From a virus (Duplodnaviria; Heunggongvirae; Uroviricota; Caudoviricetes): a DNA stretch of 64,000 nucleotides. The position numbers were made by a program, and so were the translations under genes. The notes under the pieces are model-generated. The model did not search any database. It was given only the letters and a program-made list of their open reading frames with translations, and was not told where the DNA came from. Positions 2,540 through 10,997 of the stretch are shown here, piece by piece (positions within the stretch are counted from its first letter, which is position 1; every line of letters begins with the position of its first letter). Where the stretch lies: the IMG/VR virus record IMGVR_UViG_3300029549_000273; one strand, 5' to 3'.

Positions 2540-4042
2540 TTACAAATTGCCCGTTATTTTTAGATTGATTTTCACCTGCTTTTTGTCGTCCACGATGATA
2601 GAATCTATAATTCTTCTGAGGTCCATATTGGTTGCAGATTGCAGGCTGAGAAACCGCTCAATTTCCGTCATCGCTTCATTCGTGATGCTTTCGATGGTCC
2701 TTTCCTGTGTGCGTTGTCCTTCGAGGAGAATAAGCTGGTCATCAATCACATTGATAGATTCGTTGATTTCTGCTGTCTTACTTTTCAACGCTTCCATCGT
2801 GATGACATCATTGGCGTACATCTCCATATACTTTTCCAACTTTGCCTTCAGCTTGACCTTTTTCGCCTCAAGCGTTTGAGCGTCTGGCTTACTTCCCTCC
2901 ACCGCATTTGCTTCCTTAAACTTGCGTGCGATTTCCTGAGCGATGGACTCTTTGTTAGAGACAACCTCTCTCAGGTAGGTGGAGAGTGTTTCAATTAGGT
3001 CATCCTCTCTGACGATTGTGTTGTTGGAACATCGTTTTGCGGTATACTGGTTGTTGGTTGGACATCGCCAGTAAATGTAATCGGAGTTTGGATAATGCGT
3101 CACTCTTCGTGAGAAGGCGCGTCCGCATTCCTTGCAGCGTATCAGGGTGCTGAATAAATGCCTGTTGCTGTATCGCCCAGTGAAATGCGTGTATTCGGTC
3201 GCGTATTGTTTTCTCCTCTGCTCCAAGATTTCCTGTGCCTGCTGGAAGCGTTCGGGCGTTATGATGGCCCATTCCGGGCGGTCATGGTGGTAATACTGTT
3301 CCTTCGGCAGCGCCTTCGTCGTTCCTTCCAGAAAGTCCACAACGGTATAGCGGTGATTGATGTAATGTCCGCTGTAAATTGGGTTCTCCAGTATTCTCCG
3401 TATGTTCCTCTGGTTCCAATCGTTACCAAACTTGGTTTTCATCTGCTTTTCGGCAAGTGTGATGGCGATAAGGCGGCATCCAAGTCCCTCGTCGATGTAG
3501 AGATGATAGATTTCTCTGACGACCTCCGCTTCCCTCTCGTTGATTTCCATAGTGAAGTTATCAATCCGGTCATATCCGAAAATTCGCGGCGGTACTCTTC
3601 CTTTCTTTGATGTAATATTCTTCCCGAACTTGACTCGCTTAGACAGGTTCGAACTTTCCTCCTGCGCCACAGCGCCGAGCAGCGTGATGACGAACTCCGA
3701 TTCGCCAAGCACTTTCTGGCTGTTATTGACAAAAATCACGTCGATTCCTCTCGATTTGAGCTGTCGAATCGACGTGAGTAGGTCTACAGTATTTCGTGCA
3801 AATCGTGAGACATCCTTGACCACAAGAAGGTCAAATAGCCCAAGTTTTGAGTCACTCAGCATTTTGTTGAACGCATCGCGCTTTTTGAGCTGTCTGCCTG
3901 TAATTCCTTCGTCCGTGTAGACATTGACCAGATGATGCCCATTCTGCTTTGCAAAATCCGAGAAAAACTCCATCTGATGCTCTAAGCTATCTAATTGCCG
4001 TTCCTCGTCGGTGCTAACTCGTGCGTACCCGCACATTCTCAT
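2540..4042 (-). CDS. Large serine recombinase (resolvase/invertase catalytic domain, recombinase domain and zinc ribbon)
   Basis: The N-terminal YARVSTDEERQLDSLEHQ carries the catalytic-Ser motif. A Cys cluster is present at CKECG...CPTNNQYTAKRC. The C-terminal coiled coil and 500-aa length are typical of phage/ICE serine integrases. A ribosome-binding site AAAGGAGG precedes the start. Confidence 0.88.
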   Translation of the reverse strand: MRMCGYARVSTDEERQLDSLEHQMEFFSDFAKQNGHHLVNVYTDEGITGRQLKKRDAFNKMLSDSKLGLFDLLVVKDVSRFARNTVDLLTSIRQLKSRGIDVIFVNNSQKVLGESEFVITLLGAVAQEESSNLSKRVKFGKNITSKKGRVPPRIFGYDRIDNFTMEINEREAEVVREIYHLYIDEGLGCRLIAITLAEKQMKTKFGNDWNQRNIRRILENPIYSGHYINHRYTVVDFLEGTTKALPKEQYYHHDRPEWAIITPERFQQAQEILEQRRKQYATEYTHFTGRYSNRHLFSTLIRCKECGRAFSRRVTHYPNSDYIYWRCPTNNQYTAKRCSNNTIVREDDLIETLSTYLREVVSNKESIAQEIARKFKEANAVEGSKPDAQTLEAKKVKLKAKLEKYMEMYANDVITMEALKSKTAEINESINVIDDQLILLEGQRTQERTIESITNEAMTEIERFLSLQSATNMDLRRIIDSIIVDDKKQVKINLKITGNL

Positions 4043-5053: not shown

Positions 5054-5662
5054 TCAACTCTCTCCTTTCACCAGAAATTCAATGCTTTCCGCATTATCCA
5101 GAACCTCCGCTTGAATATAGACAATTACAGAGGTCTGCTTGCAGTTAGAGATATCCTGGCTGAACTGGAAGGCAGGATTGATTTCTGCCGGTTCGATGAC
5201 GATTTTAACGCTCTCGTCCCCGATATACTGCTCGGCGGCCACCAGATTGACCTCTGTTCCGTAGGCATCTGTAGAGAAAACAATCGCCTTATATCCGGCG
5301 GCATACCAGTCATCGACGAGCGGGACCTGTTCCGGCTCCACCTGCACGATGTCAAGGTATTCGCTCAGGTACTTTTCGTATTCTTTCTTCGTGTCCAGCA
5401 TGAAATATCCGTTCTTCTCCAGTTTCCTGTTTACCTTTGTGGAGAGCACGGACTTGCAGAAGGTTCCTTTTGCATCCATATCTGCAAGTGAATCCTCTGT
5501 ATAGGGCTGAATGGTTACTTGACCTGAGATGCCGCCTCCCGACGGCATCCCGGTCATCAGTGAGATAGCAATTCCGACAACTGCCGCAACTATCAGCGCA
5601 ACACCGGCAATAGCTGTCAGAAGTTTTGCCCTTTCTTTCGCTCTGCTGTGCATGACGGTCAA
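5054..5662 (-). CDS. Hypothetical N-terminally membrane-anchored protein
   Basis: 202-aa ORF. The N-terminal segment LLTAIAGVALIVAAVVGIAISL is predicted transmembrane. Confidence 0.5.
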   Translation of the reverse strand: MTVMHSRAKERAKLLTAIAGVALIVAAVVGIAISLMTGMPSGGGISGQVTIQPYTEDSLADMDAKGTFCKSVLSTKVNRKLEKNGYFMLDTKKEYEKYLSEYLDIVQVEPEQVPLVDDWYAAGYKAIVFSTDAYGTEVNLVAAEQYIGDESVKIVIEPAEINPAFQFSQDISNCKQTSVIVYIQAEVLDNAESIEFLVKGES

Positions 5663-6723: not shown

Positions 6724-6732
6724 ATATATGGC

Positions 6733-6868
6733 AGGGACGGTTGGGAATCGAACCCACCACAAGCGGTTTAAGGTGAAGAGAGGACCGTCAACCGTTGCCG
6801 TGTGGAGTCGAACCACACGGCTTGGGGAATCGAACACCCGCCCAGGTCCTCTGGTCCGGGACCGTCCC
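6733..6868 (-). ncRNA. Atypical 136-nt tRNA-like structured element with three T-arm-like hairpins and a nested acceptor-like stem
   Basis: The outer stem pairs GGGACGG with CCGTCCC, and the inner stem pairs GAGGACC with GGTCCTC. The inner span is exactly 73 nt. T-loop-like motifs are GGTGTTCGATTCC, GTGTGGTTCGACTCCACAC and GGGTTCGATTCCCAA. The element cannot be parsed as one or two canonical tRNAs by eye. Confidence 0.3.
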
Positions 6869-6949
6869 GGATGGCATAGCCCCGCTTAGATTGTCACACA
6901 CTGATATCAGGCCGGACACATCCGAGCAGTGCAGTTTTCAGCGAGGCTA

Positions 6950-7210: not shown

Positions 7211-7217
7211 AAATAAA

Positions 7218-7289
7218 GTTGGAAGCCGGACTTGACCCGGCGACCTACGCATTACAAATGCGCTACGCTACCAACTGAGCTATGTCAGC
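7218..7289 (-). pseudogene. tRNA-Thr(TGT)-like remnant abutting tRNA-Asn; the acceptor stem cannot pair
   Basis: The 5' part GCTGACATAGCTCAGTTGG...GCGCATTTGTAATGCGT and the T-arm GCCGGGTCAAGTCCGGC resemble the Thr(CGT) gene at 8295..8370. The 3' strand TTCCAAC is not complementary to the 5' GCTGACA. Confidence 0.35.
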
Positions 7290-7401
7290 ATTTTGCTCGG
7301 CTCCCGGTCGCGGACGCCTTCCTGCCAGCCGCCCAGCACTTAGCAATGATGCCAGCCGCCAATCACTTAGCTTTTTGCGCTTCCTCGCCCGCATACCGGG
7401 A

Positions 7402-8294: not shown

Positions 8295-8370
<76 letters not shown>

Positions 8371-8389
8371 ATTTTTCTCTTTGGGAGAA

Positions 8390-8464
8390 TGGCTGAGATG
8401 GCTGGATTCGAACCAGCGAGTCAGGGAGTCAAAGTCCCATGCCTTACCACTTGGCTACACCTCA
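8390..8464 (-). tRNA. tRNA-Gln(TTG), CCA encoded
   Basis: The reverse complement is TGAGGTGTAGCCAAGTGGTAAGGCATGGGACTTTGACTCCCTGACTCGCTGGTTCGAATCCAGCCATCTCAGCCA. Confidence 0.7.
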
Positions 8465-8519
8465 ATATTTCGCGGGCAGACTTTGGGACCGTCTGCCGGG
8501 GTCGTAATCTCGACGAGTG

Positions 8520-8598
8520 CGCCAGCAACGGGATTCGAACCCGTGAACTCTACATCCTTTTGGATTAAGAAGCTGAATCCGCCCAGACTTCTGCCGGC
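8520..8598 (-). ncRNA. Non-canonical tRNA-like element (79 nt, no CCA, aberrant anticodon arm)
   Basis: The acceptor pairs GCCGGCA with TGCTGGC and the T-arm is ACGGGTTCGAATCCCGT. The only plausible anticodon hairpin is TTCTT-AATCCAA-AAGGA, which lacks U33. Confidence 0.3.
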
Positions 8599-8678
8599 AT
8601 AAATAGTTTTTAGAGGAGAAAGCAGACTACAATGCCGCCTGCCAGGGCGCTTCATGAATGGAGAAAGTTGAAAAAACG

Positions 8679-9003
8679 GCGGGTGGCCGGATTTGAACCG
8701 ACGAGTGCGCTCTCCTACCAAAGCGTCCACATATATTGCTTTAAGGGGGGGATTGGCAGACTATAACGCCGCCTGCCGGGGCAGATGTATGGGTAAAAAA
8801 GGAGAAGAAAAAAATGGCGGGCGGCCGGATTCGAACCGACGAGCGTTTGCCCCTGCCGGAGCACCCGCATATATACTGAAGGAGAAAGGCAGACTACGAC
8901 GCCGCCTGCCGGGGCAGATGTATTTGAATGAAAAGGGAGAAAGAAAAAATGGCGGGCGGTCGGATTCGAACCGACGGGCATTTGCTCCTGCCGAAGCACC
9001 CGC
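8679..9003 (-). repeat. Three tandem roughly 135-bp units, each containing an anticodon-arm-less tRNA-like element (acceptor stem, small D-like hairpin, T-arm), at the 5' end of the tRNA operon
   Basis: The units lie at approximately 8690-8745 (degenerate), 8816-8868 and 8951-9003. Each has the form GCGGGTG-CU(C/U)CGGCAGG(G/A)G-...-GTCGGTTCGAATCCG(G/A)C-CGCCCGC-CA followed by a U-run. A compensatory C-G to U-A change occurs in the small hairpin between units 2 and 3. Confidence 0.45.
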
Positions 9004-9032
9004 GTGTTTTGCCTCCTTCAATTTATGTTTGT

Positions 9033-9061
9033 ATTATACCACATAACATCTTGATTGTCAA
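9033..9061 (-). promoter_or_regulatory. Consensus sigma-70 promoter TTGACA-N17-TGgTATAAT driving the tRNA operon
   Basis: The reverse complement reads ttaTTGACAatcaagatgttatgtggTATAATac. It lies immediately upstream of the first tRNA-like unit. Confidence 0.6.
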
Positions 9062-9062
9062 T

Positions 9063-9098
9063 AAAATGATGAAAAAGGCCCACAGAATTGTGTGGGCC
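9063..9098 (-). terminator. Rho-independent terminator downstream of the 9105..9305 gene
   Basis: The hairpin GGCCCACAcaattcTGTGGGCC is followed by UUUUUCAUCAUUUU on the minus strand. Confidence 0.6.
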
Positions 9099-9104
9099 TT
9101 TCGA

Positions 9105-9305
9105 TTAGTTCTCGTCAGCCAACTCGTCTGCCCAAAGCGAGAGCCAGCTGTAGATTTCGTCGCCGATGTTCTTATCGAACTCAGGATGCTCGTCGAAACT
9201 CAGCGGAGCGTCGATTTGAGAACACTCCCCCGATTCGGGTTCGTAAATGTCGATTTCAACATGGTCGTTATCCATGCGGATAGTCAGCTCAAGATTCTTT
9301 TCCAT
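9105..9305 (-). CDS. Hypothetical small acidic protein (66 aa)
   Basis: A ribosome-binding site AGGAGAAATGAGTT precedes the ATG. The protein is acidic with a DELADEN tail. Confidence 0.5.
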   Translation of the reverse strand: MEKNLELTIRMDNDHVEIDIYEPESGECSQIDAPLSFDEHPEFDKNIGDEIYSWLSLWADELADEN

Positions 9306-9320
9306 AACTCATTTCTCCTT

Positions 9321-9917
9321 TCAAAAATTAGAAAGCCCAGCGTTCGCAATCATTTCCTGTATGGGCGTCTGGCTCTTTCCCTTCATAAATCGGCCAAACG
9401 CCGGGTGGTTCTGGTATGCTTTTTCCAGCTTCGCTCTGGTCCGATGTGCTGCACGAGCTTCGCATTTGGATACGAAGTACATCATTCCGGGCAAGACCTG
9501 CCCGAAAGTGGTGTAACTGCTTTTGGGCTTGTCCTGCATGGACTTGAGGAAGTCCACAACAGCTTCTCTCTTGTCCAATTTATCAAGCGCCATTTTTCGG
9601 TAGTCGATAACAGTCGGGTCCAATACGGTGTCCCCATTGAGGATGACGACACAATGATGGGCAGGAATCGTATCTCCCACGAATAGCCATCCAGCATAAG
9701 TGTCAGCTTGATAGCCGGCGTTCCGCAATGCTTCACGCAAAATGAAAGCGTTGTGGTAACAGCCTCCAACAGTGAATTGCATCCCATCAAAAACAGAGCG
9801 GATACCGTCATCTTTGCACGGCACAGTATTGTCGTGGCTCAGGACGATGCCTGTTTTTCCGTTGAGCGGCCACATAGCAGATGGGATGATGATATCTTTC
9901 CCTCCCATGTCCGGCAA
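9321..9917 (-). CDS. Hypothetical protein (198 aa)
   Basis: ORF in the minus-strand array. The conserved Cys/His residues GGCYHNA...HHCVV suggest a possible hydrolase, but this is unverified. Confidence 0.45.
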   Translation of the reverse strand: MPDMGGKDIIIPSAMWPLNGKTGIVLSHDNTVPCKDDGIRSVFDGMQFTVGGCYHNAFILREALRNAGYQADTYAGWLFVGDTIPAHHCVVILNGDTVLDPTVIDYRKMALDKLDKREAVVDFLKSMQDKPKSSYTTFGQVLPGMMYFVSKCEARAAHRTRAKLEKAYQNHPAFGRFMKGKSQTPIQEMIANAGLSNF

Positions 9918-10094
9918 ATCGGAGACGATGACTTTTTCTTTATTGTTGGATAGTTGAATATCTATAGTGCATTCTCCTCCTTTTTAACTTCTTCTTCCAA
10001 TTAAGCGGTGGGATTGGCTGAGCTGACAAGGAGTCAGGCTCAGCCAATCCACAGTTTAGTTGTAGGAATCTACGCCTTTTTGCATTGCTCCATG

Positions 10095-10997
10095 TCAGCC
10101 CTGCCCCGGAAACGGGCCGCGAGGCATTTCCTGTTTTGAGGGTGTTTCCGCATCAGGCTTAGGTGCATCCGCTGTGGCAGGCTGAGCCTGCTCAGGCGCT
10201 TTGACCGGCCGCGCAAATGCCTTAACGGTATCCCAGAATACATCCATCTGGTCCGTACACTCACGCTCTTCCAGGTAGGTCGCAGCAAGGTCCGCCATGT
10301 GAAGCATAGCAGCGAGCGGGTAGCGATTATAGACCTCACTGGTCTCGCGCTCATTCGCAAAGTCTCCCATGTGGTAGCGGATAGCCATGCGCTCCTCCGT
10401 GGTAAGTCCCAGTACGCCGAGGAATTTCTCGATGATGGCAACGGAGGCCTCTCCGTGGCCGAACTTGTGCGTATCGGTCACGGTGTAGCTCATAACCGTC
10501 TCCCAGATGAAATCTCCGAGGCTGTCGTGCTTTACGTCCTTTTGAAGGGCGTTTTTCACCTTCTCCGCGTCATACGTCTTCCGGTTCTTCGGTTCCATCG
10601 AATAGAACCCGACCTTGCAGATGTCATGGAGAAGCGCGACGATGGCAGCGGAGTCCATCATTGCCTTGCTTTCCTCGTTCTTGAGCTGCGCGTCGGCGTC
10701 CTTCATGGAGTTGGCGTTGCCTACGATGATAGTCAGCCATACATAGACATTCCAGGAATGCTCCATCAAACCGCCAGGATAGTTCCCGTGGTACTTCGTA
10801 GATGCGGGCGCGTTGACATAGTTCATCACGCCGTTTCCACAGCCCGACTGCATCCAGTTCAGGAGTCGCTTGATGCCTGGACGACCAGTCTCAATAAGGG
10901 CTGAAGAAATGTTCTTCCAAAGAGTTGCCTTCTCTTCCGTGGTCAGGCTGTCCTTGTGTGGAACATTGGCCGCAGTCAGTTTCACATTGCTCAACAT
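10095..10997 (-). CDS. HD-domain phosphohydrolase family protein
   Basis: The signature H...HD...H...D is present: KYHGN, LLHDICK, HKFGHGE and MLHMADLA. Confidence 0.6.
   Translation of the reverse strand: MLSNVKLTAANVPHKDSLTTEEKATLWKNISSALIETGRPGIKRLLNWMQSGCGNGVMNYVNAPASTKYHGNYPGGLMEHSWNVYVWLTIIVGNANSMKDADAQLKNEESKAMMDSAAIVALLHDICKVGFYSMEPKNRKTYDAEKVKNALQKDVKHDSLGDFIWETVMSYTVTDTHKFGHGEASVAIIEKFLGVLGLTTEERMAIRYHMGDFANERETSEVYNRYPLAAMLHMADLAATYLEERECTDQMDVFWDTVKAFARPVKAPEQAQPATADAPKPDAETPSKQEMPRGPFPGQG

Follow-up and report, generated by a model that had tools for sequence, protein, structure and literature searches.

The stretch of DNA analysed here, a 64-kb window from the virus record IMGVR_UViG_3300029549_000273, carries a phage transfer RNA (tRNA) operon whose promoter-proximal end is occupied by three tandem, 53-nucleotide (nt) tRNA-like units, U1, U2 and U3, that lack an anticodon arm. 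These units are a real feature, the function of which is unproven. Judging from sequence, we tentatively favour, with confidence that falls short of even, the reading that they are transcribed mimics of the top half of tRNA, in which the acceptor helix and the U-run behind it would double as a terminator. In support of this reading we count an isolated and perfect promoter directly upstream, the canonical T-loop, acceptor and U-run of the units, the constraint visible between the paralogues, and the retention of at least two units among carriers that include an apparently cultured Oscillospiraceae lysogen.

Anatomy of the array and its promoter

All features of the array lie on the minus strand. 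Promoter-proximal tandem tRNA-like elements with a period of about 135 base pairs (bp) had been described in an original prediction, and their presence was borne out by Tandem Repeats Finder, which reported a repeat at 8755-9003 (period 135, 1.9 copies, 87% matches), and by a repeat search of the window, which recovered a 73-nt core in three copies at spacings of 138 and 135. Sequence inspection, ARAGORN and Rfam likewise agreed with the predicted make-up of a roughly 53-nt element: a 7-bp acceptor, a discriminator and a U-run, with no anticodon arm. The prediction placed three units before the first canonical tRNA. Three short units are indeed there, but a fourth module containing a longer unit, U4 (8598-8520), had been overlooked, as had a hairpin between the units and the terminator-like grammar of acceptor helix plus U-run. 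The full order is U1-hairpin-U2-hairpin-U3-hairpin-U4-hairpin-tRNA-Gln, with every hairpin flanked by tRNA-like structures on both sides.

The short units share one layout: a 7-bp acceptor (GCGGGUG / CGCCCGC), a 21-nt insert, a T-arm (GUCGG-UUCGAAU-CCGAC), a discriminator C, then A or G and six to seven U. The acceptor helix comprises six G-C pairs and one G-U pair and is complete in U1 and U2 (7/7 pairs), with 5-6 of 7 pairs in U3; the T-stem has 5/5 pairs, and the T-loop, UUCGAAU or UUCAAAU (UUCRAAU), is closed by G-C. A covariance model built from the three units scored them at 81 (U1), 80 (U2) and 71 (U3) bits. U1 (8951-9003) has exactly the acceptor, T-arm and discriminator given above and is followed immediately by an A + U6 tail (8944-8950). 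U2 (8816-8868) is followed by A + U7 (8808-8815), and the 3' strand of its T-arm reads CCGGC instead of CCGAC; its T-stem thus has a U-G pair where most relatives have U-A. The T-arm had been called perfect, and it is canonical, but the copy quoted was U2, which holds this G-U pair. The unit described as a degenerate first one proved to be the promoter-distal U3 (8678-8730), in which the acceptor strands GUGGACG / CACCCGC form 5/7 pairs; in most relatives the 5' strand is GCGGGCG and 6/7 pairs form, with C-A at 6:67. Its tail is G + U6 (8671-8677), or A + U6 in some relatives.

U4 (8520-8598) is an aberrant, 79-nt tRNA-like gene. Its acceptor (GCCGGCA / UGCUGGC) and T-arm are canonical, and its D and anticodon regions misfit the tRNA model, containing an AUCC-AAAA-GGAUG hairpin or a loop AAUCCAA. 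It has neither an encoded CCA nor a U-run. The Rfam tRNA model gave it 22.3 bits (cut-off 29) in an alignment that covers the acceptor and T-arm only, and ARAGORN did not call it.

Each of the four modules is closed by a hairpin, GGCAGRC-N9-GUCUGCC, with a 7-bp stem. Hairpin 1 (8888-8910; GGCAGGC-GGCGUCGUA-GUCUGCC) is preceded by CCCC and has CUUUCUCC motifs at its flanks; hairpins 2 (8755-8777) and 3 (8621-8643) were located by motif scan; and hairpin 4 (8475-8497; GGCAGAC-GGUCCCAAA-GUCUGCC) stands directly upstream of tRNA-Gln(UUG) (8390-8464), the first canonical tRNA of the operon by ARAGORN and Rfam, with its CCA encoded. Elsewhere in the 64 kb the motif recurs once, with two mismatches, at 5167-5189.

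Upstream of the array, the intrinsic terminator of the preceding gene (9073-9102; 12-bp stem and U-rich tail) sets the tRNA operon apart as its own transcription unit. It is followed by a sigma-70-type promoter (9033-9061) that matches the consensus at 12/12 positions (TTGACA, 17 nt, TATAAT) and has a TG extended -10 element, and then by a leader of about 22-29 nt (9004-9032) with GAAGGAGG. A promoter scan found no internal promoter before U2-U4 or tRNA-Gln, and the downstream tRNAs therefore depend on read-through. The leader segment UGAAGGAG (9004-9026) is perfectly complementary to CUCCUUCA (8876-8887), just past hairpin 1. When the whole array is folded to its minimum free energy, the two are predicted to form a helix of about 11 bp that would enclose the entire first module, which we take from folding as inference only.

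Terminator-like tails

T runs of six or more number only 23 on the minus strand of the window; at least eight of these runs stand behind classic G+C-rich, gene-ending hairpins, and the array accounts for four. An intrinsic terminator would be expected to place a G+C-rich helix 0-2 nt ahead of a U-run of at least five. In geometry the acceptor helix of the units (7 bp, six G-C pairs), followed by CA and U6-7, conforms to this and matches the bona fide intrinsic terminators of the phage, with one difference: the acceptor helix closes a pre-folded, branched insert of 39 nt. A terminator scan with a loop limit of 3-8 nt does not call the unit sites.

Constraint between the paralogues

Identity between paralogues was 74-92% for the units, 83-91% for the hairpins and 56-78% for the spacers. 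Of the 53 positions, 14 differ between U1 and U3: 5 among the 32 of acceptor, T-arm and discriminator, and 9 among the 21 of the insert. The insert has thus drifted as much as the spacers, and the constraint between paralogues therefore appears to sit on the acceptor/T-arm minihelix. Among the minihelix changes, two compensate in the T-stem (U-A to C-G) and two turn pair 6:67 from U-G to C-A. None of the three paralogues, and no relative, has a U-run shorter than six, though the adjoining sequence has diverged. The C-G to U-A change that the prediction noted in a small D-like hairpin is real (alignment columns 14-25), but the hairpin is less certain, because the change falls in the fast-drifting stretch; on folding, U2 and U3 favour another local structure that borrows G7.

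Distribution and relatives

We searched IMG/VR with three patterns that were fixed-stem or gapped, and with a structure-agnostic fourth, which fixed the unpaired bases and spacing and left every stem free to covary; the last was also run on metagenome and GTDB collections. All patterns together, the units were found in nine IMG/VR contigs, about 22 human-gut metagenome contigs and one GTDB genome, the latter being a 571-kb contig of Oscillospiraceae bacterium CM18GR_63 that carries an integrated prophage. In total, about 45 independent assemblies carry the array, each with two units or more. Carriers are 95-99.9% identical to the window across the region. Most have three short units, and five have two (U1 and U3). 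In IMG/VR the structure-agnostic pattern gave no match beyond this one lineage, the out-of-lineage matches that were checked in the metagenome and genome collections had no stems, and no diverged homologue was found in the three collections. A blastn search of GenBank phages matched canonical tRNAs only, with no related phage deposited.

More distant phages share the locus. Those whose HD-domain protein is 50-59% identical have the same succession of helicase, SLH protein, HD protein, terminator, strong promoter, tRNA operon and serine integrase, with neither short units nor hairpins in the tRNA operon. The array is therefore an innovation of one narrow phage lineage. In one such relative, L088, a canonical tRNA-Thr begins 19 nt past the equivalent promoter; because the acceptor stems are unrelated, there is no support for descent of the units from the tRNA-Thr that distant relatives have next to the promoter. 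A 47-nt candidate in L027 looks like an isolated 3' fragment of a tRNA or transfer-messenger RNA (tmRNA), and not like a family member. Another distant relative, L084, has an AAA_33 (P-loop kinase-like) open reading frame (ORF) at 9701-10180 inside its tRNA cluster.

The gapped pattern chiefly matched class II tRNAs and a separate set of D-arm-less tRNA-Gly-like genes of about 51-57 nt, which occur in the unrelated IMG/VR contigs L017/L040, L019, L030, L032, L036 and L041. These combine a GCGGG... acceptor with a GCC/CCC anticodon loop, a T-arm and a discriminator U, with CCA encoded in at least L019; ARAGORN calls none of them.

Proposed mechanism and rival explanations

If the units are top-half mimics, they would be transcribed from the operon's consensus promoter, the anatomy of which is observed and the output of which we infer. 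Each nascent unit would fold with its acceptor stacked on the T-arm, the poorly constrained 21-nt insert taking the place of the D and anticodon arms, and the 7-bp, G+C-rich acceptor helix would then lie two bases before the U6-7 run. A large share of transcripts would presumably end at this run, or RNase Z would cut behind the discriminator C73, a cut that we propose because no CCA is encoded; RNase P may trim the 5' side, where U2-U4 have U at -1. The products would be abundant RNAs of about 53-60 nt, unable to decode, that present the domain by which EF-Tu, RNase P, RNase Z, the CCA-adding enzyme and many toxins directed at tRNA, such as those binding the acceptor or elbow, recognize a tRNA, and metered read-through would reach the downstream tRNA genes. 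The array may have arisen when a tRNA gene was internally deleted and the resulting module of about 135 bp was tandemly duplicated.

Speculatively, the most economical trans-acting use for such RNAs is as an uncleavable decoy or sponge, present in multiple copies, for some host factor that recognizes the tRNA top half. That the units constitute a class of anticodon-less top-half RNAs made in high copy, self-terminating and serving as an uncleavable decoy for a host tRNA-directed immunity or toxin protein, or for a tRNA-processing enzyme, strikes us as quite doubtful. A precedent for counter-defence by selected tandem amplification within a phage tRNA cluster has been reported (PMC13096335).

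Several findings weigh against top-half mimicry. Within the lineage, U1-U3 have variable sites at 7 of 159 nt (4.4%), which is not below the spacers (13/212), and U4 with tRNA-Gln lies far below them at 1/154 (0/79 for U4). Half of the stem substitutions within the lineage (3/6) break a pair. Two pairs change on both sides, but the same is seen in 186 of 500 shuffles, in an alignment that holds only three paralogues and near-identical orthologues, so that covariation is not significant; folding energies of single units are unexceptional next to shuffled sequences (z = -1.9, -0.6 and +0.3). Copy number among carriers is two or three, and the syntenic relatives do without the array altogether. 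The same operon gathers tRNA debris, in the form of a pseudo-tRNA-Thr and a tRNA-Trp cut by a deletion of about 150 nt. Moreover, three terminator-like sites placed before tRNA genes would throttle those genes, and none of the neighbouring ORFs matched a tRNA enzyme, toxin or defence family in Pfam, PHROGs, PADLOC or NCBIfam that might hint at a partner protein.

Most of these findings, from the polymorphism and disruptive stem changes to the variable copy number, the debris nearby and the array's absence from distant relatives, together with two acceptor mismatches in the window's own U3, are what would be expected if the units were neutral remains of an internally deleted tRNA gene, duplicated by unequal crossing-over, functionless whether or not they are transcribed, and slowly decaying. 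We regard this as a serious contender, if on the unlikely side, since the paralogues have diverged by 26% (units) and about 40% (spacers), compared with at most 5% within the lineage, and yet the minihelix, the U-run and the hairpin stems are nearly intact. In addition, no member of the lineage has lost the array, and a site right behind a perfect promoter, invariant among 16 haplotypes (0/29 variable sites), would be a costly one for junk. A purely cis-acting role seems to us rather improbable. The units might serve as attenuators that meter the strong promoter into the tRNA genes and the ORF at 8270-7617, or as RNase P/Z handles that free four spacer hairpin RNAs with CU/C-rich flanks, in the manner of plant mitochondrial t-elements or of tRNA-flanked RNAs. 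The acceptor helix with CA and T6-7 fits the phage's own terminator grammar; the hairpin, bracketed each time by tRNA-like structures, is the best conserved part over all four modules (83-91%); CUUUCUCC, which is complementary to phage Shine-Dalgarno regions, shows enrichment in the spacers, where four of its eight copies in the window lie; and plant mitochondrial t-elements, described as end-forming signals, offer a parallel (PMC1920247). However, the distant relatives that put a canonical tRNA 19 nt past the equivalent promoter have no attenuator there, which makes no conserved regulatory need evident. The terminator scan, within its loop limit, passes over the unit sites, the hairpin fold is unexceptional next to shuffles (z about -1), and no target for the spacer RNAs is known.

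Two further explanations fare far worse. It is very unlikely that the array acts at the level of DNA, as replication-origin iterons, a packaging site or a similar repeat, or that it is a small gene for a repetitive protein. A non-coding stretch does hold the four modules of about 135 bp, with one 23-bp palindrome in each, and ORFs cross the array on both strands, but such sites have no use for a canonical T-loop or for complementary acceptor strands, the palindrome is confined to the array apart from the two-mismatch copy at 5167-5189, and the array sits within a promoter-driven tRNA operon. The near-identical relatives differ by frame-breaking indels of 1-2 nt in the T and C runs of the spacers, and the array is therefore not protein-coding. 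A plus-strand ORF of 252 codons (8928-9686) starts within U1, antisense to the minus-strand genes 9305-9105 and 9917-9321; we judged it spurious because signals and frame-breaking indels favour the minus strand. The original prediction also offered the units as recombinase targets or as what repeated integration at the 3' end of a tRNA had left behind. The kinship of the units to tRNA, and an integrase (2540-4042) encoded by this temperate phage, would suit such attachment (att) sites, but we reject this account as extremely improbable: both complementary acceptor strands are present where att remnants are one-sided (PMC9897764), the integrase is a large serine recombinase and not a tRNA-targeting tyrosine integrase, the prophage/host junction in related prophages adjoins the integrase at a Mn-catalase/CotJ locus about 5 kb from the array, and free viral contigs and the integrated prophage carry one and the same array. 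With constraint evidence mixed, the prediction's other suggestion, a tRNA-mimic mini-helix or regulatory RNA, remains the best-supported reading as far as the sequence can indicate.

Operon and phage surroundings

Beyond the array the operon continues with tRNA-Gln, tRNA-Thr, the ORF at 8270-7617, and tRNAs Tyr, Leu, Asn, Glu, Met and Gly. The product of the ORF has a low-confidence predicted structure (predicted local distance difference test (pLDDT) score of 54), and its homologues are confined to close relatives. The window belongs to a large temperate phage of a gut Oscillospiraceae host and encodes, besides the serine integrase at 2540-4042, RNase H, helicases, a sigma factor, and tail and lysis genes. 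Behind the integrase, truncated Mn-catalase/CotJ genes mark a prophage junction in L080, L083, L085, L087 and L088, and RNase H/RecJ marks the phage form in L081, L084 and L086, which points to a cotJC-like Mn-catalase gene in a spore-former as the likely integration site.

Several other structures were found in the operon, the first three of them on the minus strand. At 7217-7289 lies a pseudo-tRNA-Thr(UGU)-like copy, 80% identical to tRNA-Thr(CGU) (8298-8379), with a broken acceptor and no CCA; it scores 41 bits with the Rfam tRNA model and is not called by ARAGORN. Immediately before tRNA-Met, a T-arm followed by CCGUCCC-U-GCCA (6727-6790) is all that is left, at the 3' side, of a tRNA-Trp(CCA) gene. 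The gene is intact in L078 (7570-7647) and L075; in the window its 5' two-thirds were lost through the deletion of about 150 nt. Between tRNA-Glu and tRNA-Met, a further non-canonical structured RNA at 6790-6880, without a match in Rfam, has an 8-bp helix, AGAGGACC / GGUCCUCU, around two T-arm-like hairpins, GGGCGGGUGUUCGAUUCCCC and CGUGUGGUUCGACUCCACACG. Compared with L078, in which the region is about 97-98% identical, the second hairpin shows two compensatory double changes (GUGUGG / CCACAC versus GCGAGG / CCUCGC). The spacer between tRNA-Leu and the pseudo-tRNA-Thr contains a 22-nt direct repeat in two copies 27 nt apart (7323-7371; plus strand TGCCAGCCGCC.A..CACTTAGC).

Implications

Phage tRNA clusters are a front line against tRNA-cleaving defences, in which, to our knowledge, only full-length replacement tRNAs have so far been implicated. 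If top-half mimicry is correct, a strongly promoted, repeated acceptor/T-arm minihelix would be a new kind of bacterial tRNA mimic and a natural case of a tRNA-shaped terminator. A decoy function, should it hold, would amount to an RNA-based anti-defence strategy distinct from the supply of replacement tRNAs. The units also offer a simple handle for finding proteins that read the top half of tRNA, and since a cultured lysogen, Oscillospiraceae bacterium CM18GR_63, appears to exist, the question is directly testable. Even if the units prove to be only debris, they would record the turnover of a phage tRNA operon by internal deletion, tandem duplication and decay, and would be a warning that tRNA finders miss such elements.

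Comparison with known RNA families

ARAGORN called eight tRNAs in the window, none of them U1-U3, and found no tmRNA; the Rfam tRNA model (RF00005) gave no match to U1-U3 up to E = 10 on a 567-nt slice. Ordinary full-length tRNAs overlooked at this site, which the original prediction had named as a finding that would overturn it, were thus not present among U1-U3 by either ARAGORN or Infernal/Rfam. Their top Rfam matches, which span just the acceptor and T-arm, were to tRNA-Sec at 16-19 bits (cut-off 47). The units have the 7-bp acceptor and the UUCRANY T-loop closed by G53-C61 of a canonical tRNA and lack the four-arm cloverleaf. All eight canonical tRNAs of the operon encode a 3' CCA, and U1-U4 do not, the short units ending ...CGCCCGC-C-A-UUUUUU. 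With the tRNA genes and pseudogenes of phages, U1-U3 share residence in the operon, the T-arm consensus, the 7-bp acceptor and a clear derivation from a tRNA gene; they differ from both in being 53 nt long, without an anticodon arm or encoded CCA, and in the U-run behind them.

Acceptor-TψC minihelices serve in the laboratory as substrates for RNase P and RNase Z, for the CCA-adding enzyme and for some aminoacyl-tRNA synthetases. They have the same coaxial acceptor/T-arm domain and discriminator, which is the part of U1-U3 that is conserved between paralogues. U1-U3, by contrast, are natural, genome-encoded and tandem, and their T-arm is set apart from the 5' acceptor strand by the 21-nt insert. 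The identity elements G3:U70 and G-1:C73 are absent, the stem being G1-C72, C2-G71 and G3-C70 with C73. Known prokaryotic tRNA fragments are usually one-sided att remnants, clustered regularly interspaced short palindromic repeat (CRISPR) spacers or tmRNA ends (PMC9897764); U1-U3 differ in keeping both acceptor strands.

The tRNA-like domain of tmRNA resembles the units in its acceptor and T-arm, its D-loop analogue and its missing anticodon arm. A tmRNA was rejected on the grounds of G3-C70 in place of G3:U70, no tag reading frame or pseudoknots, a length of 53 versus about 350 nt, and no match by ARAGORN or Rfam. Among non-decoding tRNA-like RNAs released by RNase P/Z are mascRNA and the virus-encoded tRNA-like RNAs (vtRNAs) of murine gammaherpesvirus 68 (Rfam RF01684), of which the vtRNAs are clustered with T-runs behind them. 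Both are eukaryotic and keep a four-arm-like cloverleaf. U1-U3 would be alike as non-decoding tRNA mimics encoded by a virus or host but have no such cloverleaf, and the sole match of the Rfam mascRNA model in the window (19 bits) falls inside tRNA-Leu, leaving the units unmatched. In the bacterial Y RNA YrlA, a long Ro-binding stem replaces the anticodon arm, and the gene adjoins rsr (PMC4201824). YrlA shares with the units the character of a non-decoding bacterial or phage RNA, an acceptor-like stem, and D and T-arm mimicry (PMC4201824). A Y RNA was rejected, there being no Ro-binding stem and no Ro-like gene among the neighbours scanned; the YrlA model reached 22.7 bits (cut-off 69), elsewhere in the operon, and the Deinococcus Y RNA model 15.1 bits (cut-off 80).

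The T4 stable RNAs 'species 1 and 2' lie in a tRNA cluster and accumulate stably, their role being unknown. Plant mitochondrial t-elements are described as end-forming signals (PMC1920247). Like the units, both are tRNA-like structures embedded in transcripts or tRNA clusters. They come from other organisms, with other structures and no sequence kinship, and neither is tandem with a terminator-like U-run. In phage T6, SegB is reported to drive the tandem amplification of a tRNA-Tyr segment, which is selected for its RNA dosage as a counter to a tRNA-cleaving defence (PMC13096335). Both cases present tandem repeats inside a phage tRNA cluster, but T6 amplifies a full-length, decoding tRNA, recently and by way of a homing endonuclease, whereas the repeats here are old (26% diverged) and anticodon-less, and no homing endonuclease adjoins the array. 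A ToxI-like type III toxin-antitoxin array, for which repeats of 34-45 nt behind a promoter and then a ToxN/AbiQ-family toxin gene would be expected, was also rejected: the period is 135 nt, and the flanking ORFs gave no toxin match in PADLOC, Pfam or NCBIfam. A full-text search of the literature found no description of such elements in phages. U1-U3 are a tRNA-derived variant that belongs to none of the RNA families compared here.

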